Position numbers and translations under genes: made by a program. Below the pieces are notes generated by a model. That model saw only the letters and a list, made by a program, of their open reading frames with translations, made no database searches and was not told the DNA's origin. A DNA stretch of 64,000 nt, taken from NCBI GenBank assembly GCA_043228905.1, contig JBHGNT010000007.1, positions 12,772,001 through 12,836,000 on the forward strand, given 5' to 3'. This document shows, in pieces, positions 1-54,300 of this stretch (its first letter is position 1; each line of letters opens with the position of its first letter). Source of the stretch: Azolla caroliniana. Taxonomy: Eukaryota; Plantae; Polypodiophyta.

Positions 1-42
1 GAGGACTCCTCCAAGGCAACGCGGAGGGGATTCGAGGATTGG

Positions 43-1725
43 GTGGAAACGTCAGGTAAGGGGCTGAAGGTCCTCGAAGTGTTTTCGACATTCGAAAGTC
101 GGTTCGGGAGGTTGTCCGCGAGAGATCAAACTATTCTTGCACCGGACAAAGTCATCATGTTTTTGCGAGCTGTGGACGTCCGGGACCGGAAAGATCTCGG
201 AGTGCTTCTTGAGGACACGGCCACCGAAAGCGGCCTCACCGAAACATGGGAAAGCGTGCGGGATATCGTCGCGCGGTACACGAAGAGGGGGCAATGGCTT
301 GCCAACGAAGAAAAGAGGGTTTCGGAACCGATTCCGAAACCGAGAACGGGACTGGAAGACCATCAACCGAGGGCTCGGGAGATTACGGCCGAGAAGGGAG
401 TCGACGCGTCTACGGTGGAGCAGCTGCTGAAGGAGATGGAGAATCTAAAGATCGCGATGGTGAAGAAGTCGGATGACCGCCCCACAAGCTCCAAATATAC
501 GGATCGACAGTGCATATGGTGCGATAGCGCCGAACACGATCGGAGGGATTGCGACGACCATAAGGAGGCGCTACGACGGGATCTCATCTACTACGAGGGA
601 AACCGGATTCATTCGATGGACTCTCGGAAGCCACTCCGACCGAACTTCCGGAAAGGCGGCATGAAGAAGGTGCTCGAGGAGGAGTTAGCGGCAAGAAGCA
701 ACTATGCGACAACCGCGGGAATATGTGTCGGGGAGTCATCGGGAGCGAAGGCGTCTTTCTGGCCGGAGGTGCTAGGAAACACCGAGAAAACCGACTCCAA
801 CGATATCCGAAACACCGCGGAAGGCGTCCGGGAAGCTACGGGATGGGAGTGCCCTGTCGACAAGAATAGCATATACGCCCTGTGTCAATTACATGAGGTG
901 TATGTGGACGAGAAACGACGGCGCACGGAGGATGCGGCCGGACCATCGAAGATACCGGAAAGCTGGAACTCCGGAGGTAAGGGAAAAGAAAAGGCGACTC
1001 CGGCATTCAAGCTCGCCTCGGACATAGAACAACAAACCGACTTGAAAAGAGTGTTCGAGGAAAGAATCTTGGATAGCCGGGTAGATTTTTCGCTGCGGGA
1101 ACTACTCGGAATAGCGAAGAAGGAGTTTCACGATCTTCTCGTGGATCTCGTAAAAAGGAAGAGACAAAGTACGGAGGAAAATGCTCCAAGGGTGAATGCA
1201 AATACCGTTTCAATGAACGACACCGAAGTGGAAGGTGAAATTCCGAACTCCCACTATACAAGGCCACACTGGGCACGTGCGACTACGGAGACTCCGGTCC
1301 GAATCGGCAACATCAAAGAACCCGTGCTAGCATTGATTGATCACGGATCGGAGATCAACTTGATGTCCAAGGAGTTCTACCGAAAGGGGAAGTGGCCTAT
1401 AAACACCAACCATGGATGGAAGATTCGGGCAGCCACGAAAACGACAGAAGACCTATTTGCGGCTTGTCTGGATGTGACGGTAAAGATCGGGGATGTCGAA
1501 ATTGACCAAAATTTCTTTGTGCAGGATGAGGTTTCACATTCTGTCATCCTCGGCCAACCCTTTATCACGGCTTCACGGATGGAGACGAAGGTGCTCGATA
1601 GTGGTGCGGCTTTTGCGCGAATTCGGAGCCAAAACGGAGGGAAATCCGTCCAATTCCTAACGGTGCCGACAAATCACGAAAGGAACAAGAGGGAACTCTT
1701 GTCCCAAGTGAGAATGGATTTTTAA
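43..1725 (+). CDS. gag: Gypsy gag-protease ORF (probably 5'-partial)
   Basis: Zinc knuckle CIWCDSAEHDRRDC. Aspartic-protease-like ALIDHGSEINLMS and VILGQPF. Ends ATG GAT TTT TAA. Confidence 0.88.
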   Translation: METSGKGLKVLEVFSTFESRFGRLSARDQTILAPDKVIMFLRAVDVRDRKDLGVLLEDTATESGLTETWESVRDIVARYTKRGQWLANEEKRVSEPIPKPRTGLEDHQPRAREITAEKGVDASTVEQLLKEMENLKIAMVKKSDDRPTSSKYTDRQCIWCDSAEHDRRDCDDHKEALRRDLIYYEGNRIHSMDSRKPLRPNFRKGGMKKVLEEELAARSNYATTAGICVGESSGAKASFWPEVLGNTEKTDSNDIRNTAEGVREATGWECPVDKNSIYALCQLHEVYVDEKRRRTEDAAGPSKIPESWNSGGKGKEKATPAFKLASDIEQQTDLKRVFEERILDSRVDFSLRELLGIAKKEFHDLLVDLVKRKRQSTEENAPRVNANTVSMNDTEVEGEIPNSHYTRPHWARATTETPVRIGNIKEPVLALIDHGSEINLMSKEFYRKGKWPINTNHGWKIRAATKTTEDLFAACLDVTVKIGDVEIDQNFFVQDEVSHSVILGQPFITASRMETKVLDSGAAFARIRSQNGGKSVQFLTVPTNHERNKRELLSQVRMDF

Positions 1726-1779
1726 AGCGGACTGTTGCGGAGTGGGGAAGTGATAGTCCGAGAAGCCCTGATACCCCAC
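1716..1779 (+). promoter_or_regulatory. predicted -1 programmed ribosomal frameshift signal (G GAT TTT plus H-type pseudoknot)
   Basis: Slippery heptamer 1716-1722. The -1 frame is open from there into pol. Stem 1 is 1728-1738 with 1750-1760; stem 2 is GTGGGG 1742-1747 with CCCCAC 1774-1779. Confidence 0.75.
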
Positions 1780-4700
1780 ACAGGAAGAAAACTCTCGGAG
1801 CAAAACAAGTACGAATCGGGCCGGATGGGGCATCTACGTACACGGCCGTAACCGGAGGAATGAAGAAACAATACCGACAAGTGGAGGATAAGTTACGGTC
1901 GGCATCAATAATAAAAGAAGACGAAGAAATCGTGGGAGTGATCGAGGAAGTGTTCTATGGGAATACACTACAACGGCTTGAAGAGCTTGCGGAAGATAAA
2001 AGCCAAGGGAACCGGGTAGTCCCGGTGGAATCGGTCGAGATGTACGAGATCGTTGCGAAAATGGGGCCGGATGCGCTCCGCAAAGAAGAAGCAATGCTAA
2101 GTACGAAATACAAGACCGTAGAGAAGAAGGTGAAACCGGCCACGGGACCACTACCCGTCGATAGCGAACAAAAGAAGAAAGAAGTCTCGGGAGATCCGAC
2201 ACTTCGGAAGTCCGTGGATATCGGACATGCCTTCACAGATGAGACCCGGAAGAAACTTCGGATCGGTGGAGGTGGGTTCCTCTTACAAGAAGAAGAAAAA
2301 CGGTTTCGAGAGATGTTGGAGCAACATGGCAAAGCATTCGCGTTCACATCGAGGGAGATCGGATGCATTGATCCAAAGATAGTGGAGCCGATGGTGATTT
2401 TCACGATTGATCATGTACCGTGGAACCTGAAGCCGATTCCGGTGCCACGGGCGCATATTCCGAAAGTCATCGACTTGCTCAAGGAGAAGGTGGCGATGGG
2501 GATTCTAGAGCCATCAAGTGCTTCGTACTCAAATCGATGGTTTACGGTTCCGAAGAAGAATGGGTCACTCCGATTCATCCAAGACTTGCAACCGGTGAAC
2601 AAGGTCACGATCCGGAACTCGGGAGTCGGTCCGATAGTGGACGAATTCGCGGAAGCTTTTGCCGGACGTGCGATATACTCCATCAGGGACCTATACTCGG
2701 GGTATGACCAATTCCAACTAGCCGTGGAGAGCCGAGACATCACTACCATGCGGACACCGATAGGACTAGTTCGAATGTGCACACTACCGCAAGGAGCGAC
2801 AAACTCGGTTGCACATATGATGAACGCGATGAACAAGGTGCTTCGAGATTGCATCCCGGAGATAACGATGCCGTTTCTAGATGACATTCCGATGAAAGGA
2901 TGCGCGGTGGAAGAAAAAGATGAGACTATGGATGATCGGGGATGCCGAAAGTTCGTGGTCGACCATATTCATGATTGCGAGAAAGTGTTGCGAAAGCTAG
3001 AAGATGTGCACCTAACACTTTCCGGGGAGAAATCGACATTCGGGCAAGAAGAAATATTGGTGGTCGGACATCTATGTGGACCCTACGGCCGAAGACCGTC
3101 ACCAACAAAGATCGATGCGATTCAAGCTATGAAGGAAGTATGTGAGTCAACATCGGAAGTCCGAAGGTTTCTGGGTGCGTGTGCATTCTATCACATATGG
3201 ATTCCGCACTATGCACATATAGCGGACCTGCTCTATCACTTGTTGCGGAAAGGTAAGAAATTCGAGTGGAAACCGGAACACACTAAAGCCATGAGGAAGC
3301 TCAAGAAGACACTATGGAGGGCGGAATCACTTAAGAAGCCAAGCTACGAGCGGCCAATCATAGTAACGGTTGATACAAGTCCAACCGGTATCGGGTGGGT
3401 CATCAATCAAGCCGACTCGGATGGTTCGCGGTATCCGATCCGATTTGGAGCAAAGGTCCTCAACGAAAGGCAACGCGGATATGCACAAGTCAAAAGAGAA
3501 TTGTGGGGAGTCGTGTCGGCGATAAAATCGGATCGGGATTATTTGATCGGAGCTGAAGTGGTGATCGAGACGGATTGTCTTCCGATACTCGGGATGATGC
3601 GGTGTTGTACGATACCGGATGTGGCTATGCTAAGGTGGATTGCATATGTCAAGTCACTTAATCCGGAGGTTCGACACATCTCGGGGAAGGACAACGCGGT
3701 AGCGGACATGTTATCGAGGGCGCGGTTTGAAGACGACATAACCGAATCAGATAATGAAGAAGTTTCTGAAGACTACTTCACGTCAGAACACATATGCCGA
3801 GTGAACGTGATCCGAGAATTCCGGGAAGAAGAATACGAGGGGGAAACCTTGATGATCGGGAAGATGCTACAAGAGGTCGAGGATTCAACCAATGATAAAG
3901 AAAGGAGAGCCGAGATCCGAAGGAAGAAGAGGCAAGTCCAAAAGTTCTTCTTGGAAAACGGTTTAATATGGAGGACGCCGAAAAGACCGGATGGGATACC
4001 ACTTCGAGTAGTCGGGACGAAAGAGCAACGAAACCGGATAATGTCCGAGTTCCACGAATCCGATTGGGCTGGACATCGAGGAACATGGGCAACTTTTGTG
4101 AAAATCAAGCAAAGATATTGGTGGAAGAACATGTATAAAGATGTCGCGGAGTTCACAGAAAGCTGCGAGAAATGTCAAGTCTACTCCGGGGTCCGACACC
4201 GAGATGAGCTGCATCCGACATTCTCACCGACAATCAACTTCAAGTGGATGGTCGACATTGTAGCTATGCCGACCGGGATTGGACAAAAGAAATACTTGGT
4301 GTTAGCTCGAGAAGATCTCACAAACCAAGTTGAAGGTCGAGCGCTTCGGAGGAAAACGTGTGCTGCGGTGTGCCAATTTCTTTTGGAAGAAGTGTTTTGT
4401 AGGTACGGCTGCGTAGGACAAGTGATTGCGGACCGGGGAGAACTCGACTCGGACAAAGCTAGGGGATTCTTCGCCAAACATGGAGTTCGGTTAACGTTGA
4501 CAACGGCCTACAATCCGGAGGCCAACGGGAAGATCGAACGAGGACATAGTCCGATCGTGAAAGCACTTGCGAAGGCATGCGACGGAAGGGTGAAGGATTG
4601 GCCACAAATGCTTCCGTATGCACTATGGGCGGATCGGACGACGCATAACTCCGTGACCGGTTACATGCCGGCAGAACTCATGACCGGACAAGCACCGGTA

Positions 4701-5327
4701 ATGCCAACGGAAACCGCAATCGCAACATGGACAATACTACCGTGGAAGGAAGAGATGAGCCGGGAAGAACTACTAGCGGTCCGGATATGACAACTGGAGG
4801 GAAGACCGAAAGATGTAGCGGACGCGTCACGCCGACAACAAGAAGCACGGTTCCGGAACAAAAGCCGGTTCGACACAAAGCACCGACTACGACCGAGGAG
4901 GATTGAAGAAGGAGATTGGGTGATCGTCTATGATAGTAGCTTGGACCACCAACATACAACGATGCGGAAATTCGCGAAAAGGTGGTTCGGACCGTACGAG
5001 GTTCGGAAGGTCTTCGACAACGGGACGTACCGATTGTCCGAGTTGGATGGAACAATACTACGAGTGCCTATAGCCGGGAAGCGGGTGAAGATTTTCAAGA
5101 AGCGGACCGACGACAAACCTTATGTGATCCAAGTCGAGGCCGACAACGAGGAGCAATCGGACGAAGATCACAATGATGCGGGAAGCGAAGAAAGTGGATT
5201 ACAACTCATAGTCGACATAAGGGGAGAATCGGAGGAAGCTTCGGATGAAGACGGATACGAAGAATCAAGAACTTCGGCACATACCGGAGGATGTGCGGGT
5301 TTGGAGGGGGCGAGTGTCGTAGTGTAG
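1722..5327 (+). pseudogene. pol: Gypsy pol (RT, RNase H, integrase, GPY/F) with one premature stop at 4788-4790
   Basis: RT LPQG...PFLDDI; RNase H VDTS; integrase HHCC and D,D,E (DRGE, NGKIER); GPY motif after the stop. ORF 4920-5327 is in the same frame as 1860-4790. Confidence 0.93.
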
Positions 5328-6099
5328 GTTGCACACTATGTGGAAATTATATTTTTGTCCCTCCGGATAGAGAATGGAGTGCTCGGTGAGAACCGGAAGA
5401 AAACGGCATACCGGCAAGGAGGAAAACGGCATACCGGCAAGGAAGAGCCGGATAAAGAGACATAAATGTAAAAAAAAAGGAAATACTCACTACTGCGCAG
5501 GGCGTGATTCAAACTCTGCACCTCCACGTTGACAAACCTCAACCTTACCATTACATTAACTTATCTTAAGTGTTTTAAATAAATAGATTTAATACGTATA
5601 AGACCTTTATTTATGCATACCTTTATTAAAAGGTAAATCGTGTATTTTTTTAATATATGAAAAAGAAAAAACACGAGACACTAAAAATAACTCATGCACA
5701 TCTAGCGTGCATGAGCCCTATACTTAGGAAATAAAAAAGCATCACATGCACATTTAGTGGACATGAACACTTTTTGTAAAAAAAAGCATGAAGCCATGCT
5801 TAGCTCTTCTTTCCTTATATAAGGAGGAGAGAAATATGTAAAGGGTTGTTGATTATTTGGATTAAGTATTAATCAATACAAAAATTATTCGTGGGATTCA
5901 CGATTTATACATCTACTTCTCTCTTAACACCCTAAGTACCAATTAATATAGTATACTCGTGTGATTCACGAGTTTCTTATCTTTCTCTTCGCTATTTATT
6001 CATAATTAATCTCTATCTCACGAACTTCTTTCTCCTAGTCCAAGACCTCTGTGGTTCCCACCCGACTCACGCAACGATCCGGAGCCGAAAGGCACGACA
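5315..6099 (+). repeat. Gypsy 3' LTR (785 bp)
   Basis: Follows the PPT. TGTCGT/ACGACA termini. Homologous to the solo LTR at 50558-51279. Confidence 0.92.
5494..5566 (-). ncRNA. tRNA-like (SINE-head-like) Pol III unit within Gypsy LTR, degenerate copy
   Basis: Minus strand: TAATGTAATGGTA (A-box-like), AGTTTGAATCA (B-box-like), then a T9 run from A9 at 5470-5478. Confidence 0.5.
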
Positions 6100-7820
6100 C
6101 CGTCTGACCGAAGACATCGTACATGACGCCCAATTGTCTTTTCGACTTCGCTTTTGAATTTTTGGAAGTGTGTAAACACTTCGCTCTTCATCCTCATGGG
6201 AAAGATCCATGTGTATCTAGAGAAGTCATCGATGAAGGTAACATAGTACCGACATCCTCCGAACGTAGCCGTTTGTGCTAGTCCCCACACATCCGAGAGG
6301 ACTACATCCAATAGGCCTTTGCTCACATTCCTCTCCTTCGGGAACGGGTGCCGATGTTGCTTGCCGAATTGGCATGCTTCACATACTCCTTCAATCTCTT
6401 TCTCTTTGAAGGTCGGGAGCCCAATGACGACTCCTTTCGATTGCATCGCCTTGAGTTTGTTGAGATTGATATGGCCGATTCTTTTATGCCATAGCTCTAT
6501 GTCGGTGTTGAATTTGAGGCCCTTTGCAAACATAGCCGATTTTACCTTATTTGTTTCGAGGATAAACATTCGGCCTTCCCTTCGACCACGAGCAAAGTCG
6601 ACGAACCATACATCTTCCGGATTGGAGGCATTAGTTGAAGTAGAGGCCAACATAGATCTTCATAGTCTCATTACAAACATTCCACCATGATCTTCCTAGT
6701 TGAAGTTGGTGGCGTAATTGGTGAGTTGTCGGCTTGTGGAAGCCGACTCACACTTCTTCTTTCGGCACTCTTCTTCATGGTGGCCGATTTTTCCGCAATA
6801 ACCACATTCGATCGAGGTTTGTTGACTCGGACCAAAATGGAAGCTCCCCCTTCTTCCGAAGGTTCCTCGATGGCTTCCGTCTTGATGCCAAAATTGCGAG
6901 TTGTTTTCGTAAGTCGGGCCTCGTCCACCTCGTCCTTGGCCGAATCGGCCTCTTCTTGCATGACCGCGTCCTCTTCCTCCATCTGAATGCGTGTAGAGCA
7001 TGTGACCTTTCGAGGCGTTGCCCCTTGTTCGAACGTGATTTTCTTTGACCAACAACATGGATTGAAGATCGAAGAAGGAGGGCGGATTCTCTCATCCTAG
7101 TATGGCGGTCCGCATCACGCCAAACCGTGGTGCAAGGCCACCAAGGCATATTTGCACCATTTCGTCATCCTCCACAGTGACGCTTATCGAACCGAGTGCA
7201 TCACAAAGCTCCTTGATCTTCAAGGTGTAGCTTGTGATGGACATATCCCGTTGTTGGATGTTGTTCAACTCTTGGCGGAGTTGATGCTTTCGTGCCGTTG
7301 TATTGGCGGCAAATATCTTCCTTAGATTCTCCCATGCTTCCTTTGGCGTCACTTCTCGAATGTAGCCGAGCATGTGATCATGAACACATGTCGCCAAGCA
7401 ATACATTACTTGACTCGCCACTTGCTCCCATGTTGAGTAGTCAGCGTCTTCCGGGCCGGGTCGGTTTTCTTGTGCTCCCTTGATGTAACCCCAATAGCCT
7501 TGGACGACAAGGTATTGGTGCATCTTGTACTCCCAAGATGCGAAGTTGTTTTGATCCAACTTCGCGCTAGGGAGAGCACTCCCCATTTGAGTATTCATGG
7601 TGTTCGATGTAGATTTTCTTCTTCTTCTTCTCTCTTGAATACGAGCTATGTAGCTGCACTACGATAATGATGAGCCGTTTCTTCTTGAATGTCGGCGTGG
7701 AGCACAACACACGCGGATGGGCTAGATCGGGCTACCAAACCGCTCTGATACCATGTAAAGAATCGATGGTGATTCTTGTGCAGCGGATTAGACTAGAGAT
7801 ATGTGTTGTGAGTGTCTGTG

Positions 7821-50014: not shown

Positions 50015-50219
50015 ACTGGTGTTCTAGACTGAAGGTGAAGTCTCTATTCGTGCAGGAAGCCCGAGAGCTCTTGACTAGAGGTTCATTTTTCCGTTTCTGA
50101 GTGTTTTGGAGAGCATGCAACTCTGACACCAGCCGAGTCCGGTTGTACCTTTCTCTTGCATCAATCTGTTACATTTCACTGTTTCTTGTTTGCTATTCTT
50201 TGTGTCGCATACGCGTCTC

Positions 50220-50267
<48 letters not shown>

Positions 50268-50557
50268 CTAATACATTTTTTGTTTACTAAAGGATTCTAT
50301 TAACGTTAACTATTTATTGAGTGATGCAGGCTGAATTGTTCATGAACTTCAAAGACCAACATCCTAACATCAATCTTGAAGTTCACAAGTTCCAAGGAAG
50401 CCCGAGAGCTCTTGACTAGAGGTTCATTTTTCCGTTTCTGAGTGTTTTGGAGAGCACGCAACTCTGACACCAGCCGAGTCCGGTTGTACCTTTCTCTTGC
50501 ATCAATCTGTTACATTTCACTGTTTCTTGTTTGCTATTCTTTGTGTCGCATACACGT

Positions 50558-51279
50558 TGTCGTAGTGTATTTCGTACACTACGTGAAAAAGTAAAAATAA
50601 TATAACCGATTTAATTACATATAAATAAATAAAATAAGAATATCAAAATATTTATCACGTGCATAGGGCAGGATTTGAACCTTGTACCTGCACGTAGCCA
50701 AACCTCAACTTTACCATTATGCTACCTTATCTTTAGTGTTCTATAAATAGATTTAATAACTATAAGTGCTTTATTTGCGCCTACCTTTATTAAAAGGTAA
50801 ATCATGTATTTTTAGAGTGCGTGAATATTTTATAGAAAAACGCAAGCAACTAAAAAGTGACTCATGCACATCTAGCGTGCATGAGCACTATATTTAGCAA
50901 ATAAAAGCAAGGATTAGAAAAGCATCACATGCACATTTAGTGTGCATGAACATATTAGAAAAAAGCATGTAGATATGCTTAGTCTCTCCCATCACTATAT
51001 AAGGATGGGGAGCACATTGTAGTTTTTGTTGATTATTTTTCTATAATGATCAATCAATCTAAAATATTCGTGGGATTCACGAATTTGCTAAAATAATTCT
51101 CTCTTACTACCTAAATATTGACTAAATATACTAAACTCGTGGGATTCATGAGATTCTTATCTTATAACTCTTTATACCTATTCTATACTAGCCTTATTTG
51201 TATTTTTCTTTCTCCTAGTCCAAAACCTCGGCGGTTCCCACCCGACTCACGCAACGATCCGGAGCCGAAAGGCACGACA
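50558..51279 (+). mobile_element. solo LTR of the Gypsy family at 1-6099, with 4-bp TSD ACGT
   Basis: TGTCGTAG...GGCACGACA termini. ACGT at 50554-50557 and 51280-51283. An empty site exists in the first duplicate copy. Confidence 0.95.
50661..50731 (-). ncRNA. tRNA-like Pol III unit within solo LTR
   Basis: A box TAGCATAATGGTA (50724-50712), B box GGTTCAAATCC (50681-50671), partial acceptor stem ATAAGG/CCCTAT, TTTT downstream. The anticodon stem does not pair. Confidence 0.6.
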
Positions 51280-51286
51280 ACGTCTC

Positions 51287-51336
<50 letters not shown>

Positions 51337-51398
51337 CTAATACATTTTTTGTTTACTAAAGGATTCTATTAACGTTAACTATTTATTGAGTGATGCAG

Positions 51399-54300
51399 GC
51401 TGAATTGTTCGTGAACTTCAAAGACCAACATCCTAACATCAATCTTGGAGTTCACAAGTTCCAAGGTTTGAAACCGTTTTTTGTTAGAAAGTTATAAGAG
51501 AGGAACACATGTTGTTGTTTGTACCACATTAAAATGGACATGTTAAGGCTTGGCCTAAACACAATGTGTATTGATTCTAAGGGTATACATGGGGATGAGT
51601 GTGTTTGCACTTGTGAGGTATGTAGATCAAATGGGAGTGATAATAGATGTAATGCACGAAACATGACTTATGCATCCGTTTCTGAGTTATGGAGGTCTTT
51701 TGTTTGTGAAAAACAAGCATCATCTAAGTGGCATAATCGTACATGTGTTCTAAGAACATGTAAGGTTGCCCACAACCGCTATTTTGTAGACATGAGCTTG
51801 AAGTAGATAACTGTCGTATTGTGAAATGGAAATATTTAGAGTATGTGACAGAAAATATAGGTAAGGGTCTCATTAGTAAGCGTATCAAGGAAGTATATAA
51901 GGAGACATGTGCTACTACTCTTGTCTTAGATTTTAAGAACCAACTCAAGGAGTTCATTCCACATAACTTTAGGAGTTATTGGCAAAATTCACAGTTCAAG
52001 GAATGTATAAATAACTTACCACCAGATGTTATGGTATCTGTTATTGACTTTGCAGAGAACTATACGTTTAAAGTTCAAAATGAGGTTTAGTCAACCCATT
52101 GGTACAATGACCAATGTACAATACTTGTAAATATTTGCTATTGGAGAGAAGATGGTGAGTTACATAAGAAATCAATATTCTACATTTCAGATGATAAAAA
52201 GCACGATGTGCTATTTGTTCAACATTGTTTTAAGCTTCACCATGCAAATTTATTGTCCTTGGGTGTTAACATTAATCGCCATTGGGTGTGGTTTGATGGT
52301 GCTGCCTCGCAATTTAAGGCAGCCCGGTCCTTCTACTTCATTGCAAGGTGAGGAAATAATCCATATGTTTGGTACTTATAAATGGAAGCCTATTTTGGTA
52401 ATACTCTATAGTACTTATAAATGTTTGTATAAAATACAATTAGTAATTCTCCTACTACATGCACCAGTACTGTCTTGAAATGTGAATCTGAACTGATTGG
52501 CCATTTAGTTCTCTCCTCCTAGATTCACTAATATTGATTATGGTAATAACTGTGTTAAGTAAACTTAATTTACAACTTAGCATTGTCCTCCTACGTGCAC
52601 AAGTACTAATTAAGGTTCAGGCCTTGTAATGTATCCTTAATTTACAACATAGTATTGTCCTCTCTAGTGCACATGCACAAGTATTGACTATGGTTTACAA
52701 CTAAGTACTCAGATTAAGCATGCACAAGTACTAATTTATAACTTAGGATTGTATTCCTTCGTTGGCAGGAGTACTAATTTATATCTCAGCACTGTCCTCT
52801 CTTGTGCATTAGTACTAATGAATAACTTAGTATTATCCTCTTTCGTTCATTAGTACTAATTTATAACTTTGGACTACTATATTCGGCAAGCACGAGCACT
52901 AATTAATACTTAGCATTGTCCTCTGTCATACATTTGTACTAATTAATAACTTAGTTGTATTCAACTTTGTTCATTAGTACTAATTTATAACTTAGTATTG
53001 TCCTCTCTCATTAGTACTAATTATTAGCTTAGTACTATCCAACCATGTTCATTGGTACTAATTTATAACTTAGGATTGTCCTCTCTCATTAGTACTAATT
53101 ATTAACTAAGTATTATCTAACCATGTTCATTAGTACTAATTTATAACTTTAGACTACTATATTCGGCAAGCACGACCACTAATTAATACCAAGCATTGTC
53201 CTCTCTCATACATTTGTACTAATTAATAACTTAGTTGTATTCAACTTTGTTCATTAGTACTAATTTATAACTCCGGATTGTCCTCTCTCATTAGTAATAA
53301 TTATTAACTTAGTACTATCCAACCATGTTCATTAGTACTAATTATTAACTTAGTACTGTCCAACTTTGTTCATTAAGACCAATTTATAACTTAGGACTGT
53401 CCTCTCTCATGCATTAGTGCTAATTTCCTACTTAGTACTGTCCAATATTGTTCATTATGACCAACTTATAACTTAGGACTATTCTCCCTCACGCATTAGT
53501 ACTAATTAATAACTTATCACTTCCCTCTCTTGTATGTTAGTACTAATGTCCAACTTAGTACTATCCTCTCTTGTGCATTAGTACTATCCTCTCTTGTTCA
53601 TTTGAACTGATTCGGGTTTTAGTATTGTCCTCTCTCAAGCATAAGTAATAATTATGGTTTAAGTCATGTAATTAATTGTGTTTGTTGGTGAACTATCATG
53701 CAAAACACCCAGATACTTCTCATTGACAAACATTAGGATGCAATGGAACTACTTCGGGTCTGGACATGGAAAGGGAGAGCACGATGGCACAGGGGCTGTA
53801 ATCAAGCGTGCTCTTACAAGTGAGCAATTGCATAATAAAGGTGCTAAGTTACAAAATGCACATGATGTTGTGGAGTGGCTCACATGGAGATGTCAAATGA
53901 TGGTAAGAATAGATTGTTTATTGAGGTTCGTGCTAATGGGGTGGATATGAGTAAATCATATGGTTGTAAAATTGTGAAAGGGACGCGCAAGACCCATTGT
54001 GTTTTAGGGTTTAGTCGCAACGATACAACACAATTGTTATTCTGCAGTTTATTGTGTTTTTGTTCCATGTGTTTAGATGAAGCTTGGGATGAATGCACCA
54101 ATCTATCAATTGTGGAGCCATAGAAGCTACAGAAGCTTGAGATAGAACAATGTGTGCATATCCAAGAAAACGAACATTCAGACAATATTGTATACTACAA
54201 CTAGTGTGAGGACTTGGCAATATTATTGGAAGTTGGAGATCATTTTGCGGTGCTCAAATCTCCTCAAAATGAAGATTTTGAAGACTACTACATTGTGGTG

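Follow-up and report, generated by a model that had tools for sequence, protein, structure and literature searches.

The LTRs of Gypsy retrotransposons in this genome carry a tRNA-derived unit, an A box and a B box, that is real, conserved and recurrent. It is present in both LTRs of the analysed stretch of 64,000 nucleotides (the window). A preliminary description of this DNA had noted the unit in one family; we also found it in further Gypsy families, in either orientation. LTR-borne Pol III boxes have been described for miniature non-coding elements, in which they are regarded as the element's promoter. Here, they occur in autonomous elements that possess a TATA promoter and they mostly face the wrong way, so that they must do something else.

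The A/B-box unit in the two window LTRs

The preliminary description placed an A box and a B box at tRNA spacing on the minus strand of both window LTRs, and this was borne out by their coordinates (Table 1) and by matrix scores. The distance from T8 to position 52 is 43 nt, as in the host tRNA-Trp and tRNA-Thr. Using a box-pair matrix built solely from the tRNA genes of the host genome (14 isotypes), we obtained scores of 28.4 for the unit of the solo LTR and 17.8 for that of the 3′ LTR. The former falls inside the range of the 12 isotypes with class-I spacing (27.6–40.1), in line with the earlier view that the solo boxes are near consensus. The maxima of 500 dinucleotide shuffles per LTR were 16.6 (solo) and 18.1 (3′ LTR), corresponding to p values of 0.002 and 0.004, and the two units were the two top-scoring of 64 window tiles. 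The lower score of the 3′ LTR is due to a C-to-T change in the B-box CpG. This break at C56 is common to the 5′ LTR of the same element, and the GTTCGA B box is intact in 15 of 23 copies of the subfamily. In the solo LTR, the CpG of the B box has decayed to a box-compatible A57.

Table 1. Positions of the unit, its LTRs and related features (window coordinates unless a locus is named)
Feature	Position	Strand	Remark
tRNA-derived unit of solo LTR (tRNA positions 1–73)	50660..50731	-	no cloverleaf
A box TAGCATAATGG of solo unit (T8–G19)	50724-50714	-	
B box GGTTCAAATCC of solo unit (G52–C62)	50681-50671	-	
T4 run, candidate Pol III terminator	50645..50648	-	conserved in place (15 F1 lineages)
Conserved AACACT block immediately 5′ of unit, candidate Pol III start	50735..50740	-	
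A box TAATGTAATGG of 3′ LTR unit	5558-5548	-	
B box AGTTTGAATCA of 3′ LTR unit	5515-5505	-	broken by CpG decay (C56 to T)
T9 run downstream of 3′ LTR unit	5470..5478	-	
Solo LTR, Phygy-type Gypsy family F1, subfamily C	50558..51279	+	
TSD of solo LTR, ACGT	50554-50557 and 51280-51283		4 bp
3′ LTR of autonomous-type element, F1 subfamily A	5315..6099	+	
TSD CCGT adjoining 3′ LTR	6100-6103		
5′ LTR partner of 3′ LTR, upstream of window	G000:C7:12770888-12771647		755/760 aligned bases identical
Polypurine tract (PPT), normal	5303..5314	+	
gag-protease frame (DUF4100)	1..1725	+	begins upstream of window
pol: RT, RNase H, integrase	1602..5327	+	no chromodomain
TATA box TATATAAG of solo LTR, putative Pol II promoter	50996..51003	+	272 bp from A box
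TATA box of 3′ LTR	5816..5823	+	258 bp from A box
Antisense units, Phygy-type families	L300, L196, L197, L199, L192		
Sense units, Phygy-type families	L173/L174, L181/L182/L190		
Chromovirus loci	L330, L331, L428-L447; LTR e.g. L308:2653-3107	-	LTR ~440 bp

The unit is not a tRNA gene, as had been stated before. ARAGORN reported no tRNA, Rfam gave no tRNA match for the units, neither in the window nor in 10 loci, and the units did not fold better than shuffled sequences (z −0.72 to +0.45). Together with stem pairing, these results rule out a tRNA gene, because a cloverleaf with acceptor and anticodon stems is missing. The acceptor-stem remnants reported in the preliminary description did not hold up: the stem of the solo unit pairs at 4 of 7 positions, and across 29 units (28 from LTRs, one from a SINE head) acceptor stems paired at 0.32 and anticodon stems at 0.34, not above the 0.41–0.42 of shuffles (0.41 for the acceptor stem). 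The D and T stems of these units pair at 0.60 and 0.65, compared with 0.82–1.0 in real tRNAs. The T-stem pairing is partly imposed by the B-box sequence itself. As for the oligo-T run that had been noted downstream, a T4 run is expected by chance within 30 nt of 54% of U3 positions, but its place in F1 is kept, in 13–15 of 15 lineages per position. Among the carrier families compared, a terminator at a fixed place was seen in F1 only. The AACACT block on the other side of the unit has a between-subfamily identity of 0.87–0.98.

By TSD, PBS and domain order, the window element is a Phygy-type, that is, non-chromovirus Ty3/gypsy, retrotransposon. The Phygy lineage was described in Physcomitrella, with a 4-bp NCGN TSD, a tRNA-Trp PBS and no extra domain (Neumann 2019, PMC6317226). 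Judging by this agreement and by the chromovirus family (see below), the host is likely a moss. Our Pfam search of the window element recovered RT, RNase H and integrase in Gypsy order, with no Chromo match and no aRH; the pol frame runs from 1602 to 4790 and, after an in-frame stop, continues with an SH3-like integrase tail (4791–5327). The PBS begins 4 nt behind the 5′ LTR and is an exact complement (18/18) of the 3′ end of the host tRNA-Trp plus CCA. The genome holds 63 tRNA-Trp-type 3′ ends and 748 exact LTR–PBS junctions of F1. Insertions of this family follow an NCGN target in varied flanks, and of 23 copies classed as solo, 20 are bordered by identical 4-bp repeats of this type. The two window LTRs had been taken as copies of one LTR; they belong to the same family, but to different subfamilies. 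Viral contigs contained no relative.

Several other features of these LTRs were observed. The solo LTR lies inside a short tandem duplication of flanking DNA with a period of ~345 bp (50054–50557 and 51281–51466). Downstream of its TATA box, an imperfect, highly conserved palindrome of the CGTGGGATTCACG type occurs at 51069–51082 and 51137–51150; in related LTRs (L010, L029) it is repeated up to four times. The palindrome provides the best-conserved windows of the LTR. This palindrome is possibly an R-region hairpin. The part of U3 that separates the unit from the TATA box also contains conserved CATGCA/TGCATG palindromic blocks (50860–50965), which resemble RY-type motifs.

Conservation of the boxes within family F1

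From the head of the list of 748 junctions we sampled 70 loci, of which 67 had a full LTR; the three without an LTR start were omitted. An antisense A/B pair was present in U3 of 66 of these 67 unbiased 5′ LTRs, ∼260–270 bp upstream of the TATA box and in all four subfamilies, which are mutually 64–80% identical. The unit is therefore built into the LTR of the family, as the preliminary description held, and is not a sporadic SINE insertion. A box score of at least 20 was reached by 51 of the 67 LTRs.

We further examined 40 F1 elements for paired LTRs and omitted seven that had no second LTR in reach, leaving 33. Subfamilies A and D are autonomous, with full pol in 17 of their 18 elements with both LTRs (internal regions of 5.6–6.8 kb; one partial). 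Subfamilies B and C are non-autonomous and account for 15 of the 33 elements, with internal regions of 1.6–2.8 kb and no pol. The family had been called autonomous: the unit is indeed present in autonomous elements, but subfamily C, to which the solo LTR itself belongs, is non-autonomous. The non-autonomous subfamilies had median box scores of 31.2 and 25.1, above the 23.4 and 21.5 of the autonomous subfamilies. Loci with the short internal regions of subfamilies B and C include L335 and L371–L387. The non-autonomous L335 (868–2940) has an open frame of 691 aa without a Pfam match and with little similarity to the autonomous internal region.

Conservation was assessed on 15 F1 lineages, drawn both from this genome and from contigs of metagenomes, with pairwise identities of 60–87%; near-duplicates, the long-branch L223 and rows without a PPT–LTR junction or with <400 nt of LTR were omitted. 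A comparison of the boxes with their flanks had been named beforehand as a check on the unit, and the boxes were found to stand above the U3 background. The ten tRNA-invariant box positions reached 0.947, compared with 0.795 for the 334 other U3 columns (p = 4e-4) and 0.783 for 20 spacer columns (p = 3e-3), and after removal of the two window lineages the boxes still reached 0.938 versus 0.791 for U3 (p = 8e-4), p-values that are optimistic because neither alignment columns nor lineages are independent. Among conserved 10-nt windows of the LTR, the boxes rank only 10th and 16th. Since the boxes are kept while the acceptor and anticodon stems pair at chance level, selection appears to act on promoter DNA and not on RNA shape.

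The CpG of the B box decays readily. Among 134 copies, it reads CG in 81, is box-compatible in 24, broken in 25 and otherwise changed in 4; a bias towards box-compatible decay was not found in these copies (25 broken versus 24 compatible). All 31 changes at this CpG fall on shallow branches and none on deep ones, whereas deep-branch changes were seen at 7 of 7 other CpG sites in U3. Within LTR pairs, the B-box CpG was discordant in 3 of 17, ACGT sites in 8 of 48 and other CpGs in 7 of 355. We had considered the B-box CpG a unique hot spot and dropped this idea, as ACGT sites in the same LTRs decay equally fast. In a set of 16 pairs, decay of the B box seemed always to precede insertion; this impression was given up when 8 of 33 further pairs proved discordant. 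Several F1 elements did insert with a broken box in both LTRs. The fast decay of the B-box CpG after insertion makes most copies look methylated there. Our reading is that most copies are methylated and decay while active lineages keep the box, a pattern seen in small numbers.

Recurrence in other Gypsy families and origin of the unit

Outside F1, units occur in four other Phygy-type families and in one chromovirus family (Table 1). The units of the other Phygy-type families score 26–37, and the integrase tails are 65–80% identical. A young Phygy-type element (L293, 783–1880), whose LTRs are 99.9% identical and which has open frames of 680 aa and 1164 aa, carries three A/B units in one LTR, two antisense and one sense. 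At L361, a related unit is tandemly duplicated.

In the chromovirus family, an antisense unit lies within the 70 bp that open U3; we detected it in 18 of 20 unbiased 3′ LTRs. It shows a Chromo match after the integrase (E = 7e-14) and has 804 exact PPT–LTR junctions; a TGG-type PBS was not found behind its 5′ LTRs. By the features that PMC6317226 lists for the clades, the family is Tcn1-type. The B box has decayed at L436 and L442. As the chromovirus LTR ends ∼15 nt past the B box, any Pol III transcript would enter flanking DNA.

Globally, a strict A/B pattern had 5,079 matches in the genome, compared with none for the reversed-pattern control. Of the first 30 matches, 28 lie antisense in Gypsy LTRs (F1 7, F4 7, F3 2, chromovirus 12), and the remaining two belong to a free SINE of low copy number whose head differs. 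Shuffled loci yielded two matches scoring at least 20 in 843 kb. In the LTRs with a recognised TATA box, the distance from this box to the unit upstream of it is 166–272 bp in either orientation, and both boxes recur at a spacing of 43–44 in unrelated LTRs and in both orientations. Scans for tRNA boxes in mosses are predicted to be swamped by LTR matches. Further single A/B units, scoring 22–31, were seen at L306:8669, L082:2996, L042:3024, L308:609 and L213:3207. Hairpin arrays that combine ends of chromovirus LTRs with a short, perfect palindrome (L211:1500–2120, L161:4130–4260 and L089:2230–2520) contain several A/B units in both orientations.

The commonest family with a Trp-type PBS (L236–L265) does not have the unit: 20 of its 22 LTRs score <13. 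In the other two, a score of ∼21 comes from a site in U5 whose A box is weak, and the match at L295/L246/L258 was rejected as a unit for this reason. The unit was also absent from L194/L195, L186, L191 and two of the 20 chromovirus LTRs. Its absence from the commonest Trp-PBS family and others indicates that it is not needed to amplify. The LTRs of L236–L265 are GC-rich (0.46–0.58 versus 0.34–0.42), and such CpG-rich LTRs without the unit suggest a different promoter design, a weak correlation seen in one lineage.

The spacers of F1, F4, L192 and F2 share 14–21 of 31 bases on average, and the units of these four may be homologous. Those of F3, F5 and the chromovirus share 8–11 of 31 with F1, where shuffles give 8–9. 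From these spacers, we infer more than one capture, from a tRNA gene or the head of a tRNA-type SINE, a pattern with which long divergence is also compatible. A tree of 105 columns resolved too poorly for a count of how often the unit was gained or lost. No donor tRNA was assignable among 12 host isotypes: the best between-box identity was 12–19 of 31, within the 6–28 seen between unrelated isotypes, and the isotype set was incomplete and partly organellar. Tandem clusters of tRNA-Trp, tRNA-Lys/Asn and tRNA-Ile genes are present in the genome (G000 C5, C8 and C16; L131, L148), and some genes in them show CpG decay in the B box.

The preliminary description had asked whether the segment exists as a free SINE, and the answer was negative for the loci covered: all seven F1-type matches among 30 unbiased loci lie within LTRs. 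Likewise, no free F1-type copies were found in 1.75 Mb of fetched, LTR-enriched DNA, in which 256 of 259 profile matches have LTR flanks and the other three resemble the F4-type LTR unit. The heads of tRNA-derived SINEs resemble the LTR unit in that the boxes are kept and the cloverleaf is lost. They differ in that no SINE body, tail or TSD was found around the LTR unit. A free, low-copy tRNA-derived SINE of ∼330–400 bp does exist in the genome (L344, L347, L448–L459), with a sharp 5′ end, an A-rich tail and apparent TSDs; its head is unrelated to the LTR units.

Possible roles of the unit and comparison with known systems

Antisense and located in U3, the unit cannot make genomic RNA. Common to all carriers are only the two boxes, the distance between them and their location in U3; they differ in orientation, spacer, fold and terminator, which argues for a role at the DNA level. 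On these sequence patterns, we give roughly even chances to the reading that the unit is kept by selection as a cis-acting TFIIIC/Pol III DNA site beside the Pol II promoter. In such a mechanism, an old tRNA-derived A/B pair would have been fixed in U3 of F1 and several other Gypsy families, and TFIIIC or Pol III at the boxes would form a barrier or open-chromatin element between flanking DNA and the Pol II promoter of the LTR. The promoter of the 5′ LTR would be held open in a few active copies, most copies being methylated and their boxes decaying. Normal reverse transcription would copy the unit to both LTRs, and an antisense transcript of ∼90 nt in F1 would perhaps be a by-product. Genes for tRNAs in yeast block the spread of silencing and require intact A and B boxes to do so (PMC7990762), and TFIIIC organises chromatin also at sites without Pol III (PMC11346459). 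That TFIIIC sites can act as barriers is documented for yeasts and mammals; we found no moss test in the literature. CpG methylation impairs or excludes TFIIIC binding (PMC11346459), which, together with the apparent methylation of the B box in most copies, counts against this reading; the absence of the unit from the commonest Trp-PBS family and the fast decay of the B-box CpG speak against an essential role. A broader proposal would be that moss Gypsy elements of two distant branches (Phygy-type and chromovirus) repeatedly captured the boxes, and that their occupancy by TFIIIC/Pol III acts as a portable anti-silencing shield for the Pol II promoter, with ∼5,000 near-perfect sites scattered through the genome. 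We put this forward tentatively, as something that may well not hold.

The selected product might instead be the short antisense Pol III RNA itself (∼90 nt in F1, predicted from 50737 to 50646 in the solo LTR), regulating the element or acting on the silencing machinery. In F1, the conserved block at the likely start and the kept place of the T4 run agree with this, as does the antisense orientation of all 28 LTR matches; in plants, transcription of tRNA genes relies on an AT-rich upstream region, a CAA triplet and T runs (PMC7544208). However, no fold is conserved and the spacer varies freely, L300, L199 and L192 have no T4 within 90 nt, none lies inside the chromovirus LTR, and sense units exist. 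We consider such an RNA unlikely to be what selection maintains.

The persistence of the boxes beyond spacer and stems, and of the B-box CpG on all deep branches, also speaks against a neutral passenger, in which case a SINE or tRNA fragment would long ago have become fixed in an ancestral LTR and would be decaying slowly. Passenger status would fit the commonest Trp-PBS family, which lacks the unit, the fast and symmetric decay of the B-box CpG, and the elements with broken boxes in both LTRs. The same arrangement where spacers share only 8–11 of 31 bases with F1, and the duplicated units of L293 and L361, add to the case against it, and we regard this explanation as distinctly improbable.

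Boxes that serve as integration bait or for positioning in the nucleus, by attracting Pol III-targeting elements or clusters of tRNA genes to the LTR, would have a precedent in the established targeting of Ty3-type elements to Pol III genes (PMC5911963); given that F1 insertions follow their NCGN target in varied flanks, and that no pile-up of insertions was seen around the unit (an uncounted impression from the loci read), we hold this to be very unlikely. There is little chance, in our view, that conservation reflects motifs of the sense strand, for Pol II or for packaging, with an accidental likeness to the boxes: the LTR does have other conserved palindromes and repeats, and the B box lies within a short hairpin in several families, but both boxes recur at a spacing of 43–44 in unrelated LTRs and in both orientations, and shuffled loci gave two matches of at least 20 in 843 kb. 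Finally, the earlier suggestion that the unit supplies the element's own reverse-transcription primer had only its tRNA-like look in its favour and can be set aside, as the PBS matches tRNA-Trp exactly, with 748 exact LTR–PBS junctions, the genome has 63 tRNA-Trp-type 3′ ends, and the longest complement between unit and PBS is 5–6 nt.

With respect to the lineage itself, the window element resembles Phygy as presented in the accessible part of PMC6317226 in that the coding region fills the internal part. At ∼7.2 kb it is shorter than the 7.7–10.0 kb range listed there, and F1 has Pol III boxes, which that part does not mention for the lineage. The closest precedents for the unit are TRIMs. In the open-access literature, Repbase reports being outside its scope, we found Helenus/Ajax and Cassandra and no description of the unit in autonomous or moss Gypsy elements. 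Cassandra TRIMs, as summarised in the available part of PMC10886601, similarly carry Pol III promoter boxes in the LTR; theirs are of the 5S rRNA-derived type, in sense orientation, and drive the RNA of a non-autonomous element.

Helenus TRIMs, or ‘TRIMp3’ (Kojima 2024, PMC10886601), which the preliminary description had not cited, are non-coding elements of 311–1263 bp whose tRNA-derived unit is taken as their own promoter. F1 likewise has a tRNA-derived sequence with A and B boxes in its LTR. In contrast, F1-type carriers are 3–7 kb long, some are autonomous and the TATA box is kept, and the unit, which is sense in the Helenus-1_SMo LTR (PMC10886601 supplement), is here mostly antisense in U3. 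In two of three respects that define Helenus/TRIMp3, the present carriers are thus different: they are not short (under ∼1.3 kb) non-coding TRIMs, and the unit is not placed for Pol III to transcribe the element, as it points away from the TATA box and the PBS. PMC10886601 argues that LTR sequence of this sort is unlikely to be found in autonomous partners as well. The paper also states that ‘not a few’ Repbase LTRs resemble parts of tRNAs, of which only short ones were analysed, so that similar cases may sit undescribed in Repbase.

If the boxes recruit TFIIIC, they would represent a transposon-borne anti-silencing or insulator device in plants, with thousands of potential TFIIIC sites within retrotransposon DNA. 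The nearest functional parallel would be the tRNA-gene and TFIIIC barriers of yeast (PMC7990762, PMC11346459, each in part), where, as proposed here, the boxes act as DNA elements independent of RNA. The yeast barriers are fixed host loci and experimentally proven, whereas the LTR unit is a mobile, putative site present in thousands of copies; if its proposed role is true, it would offer a ready test of TFIIIC-site barrier action in plants, in a moss in which genes are easily targeted.
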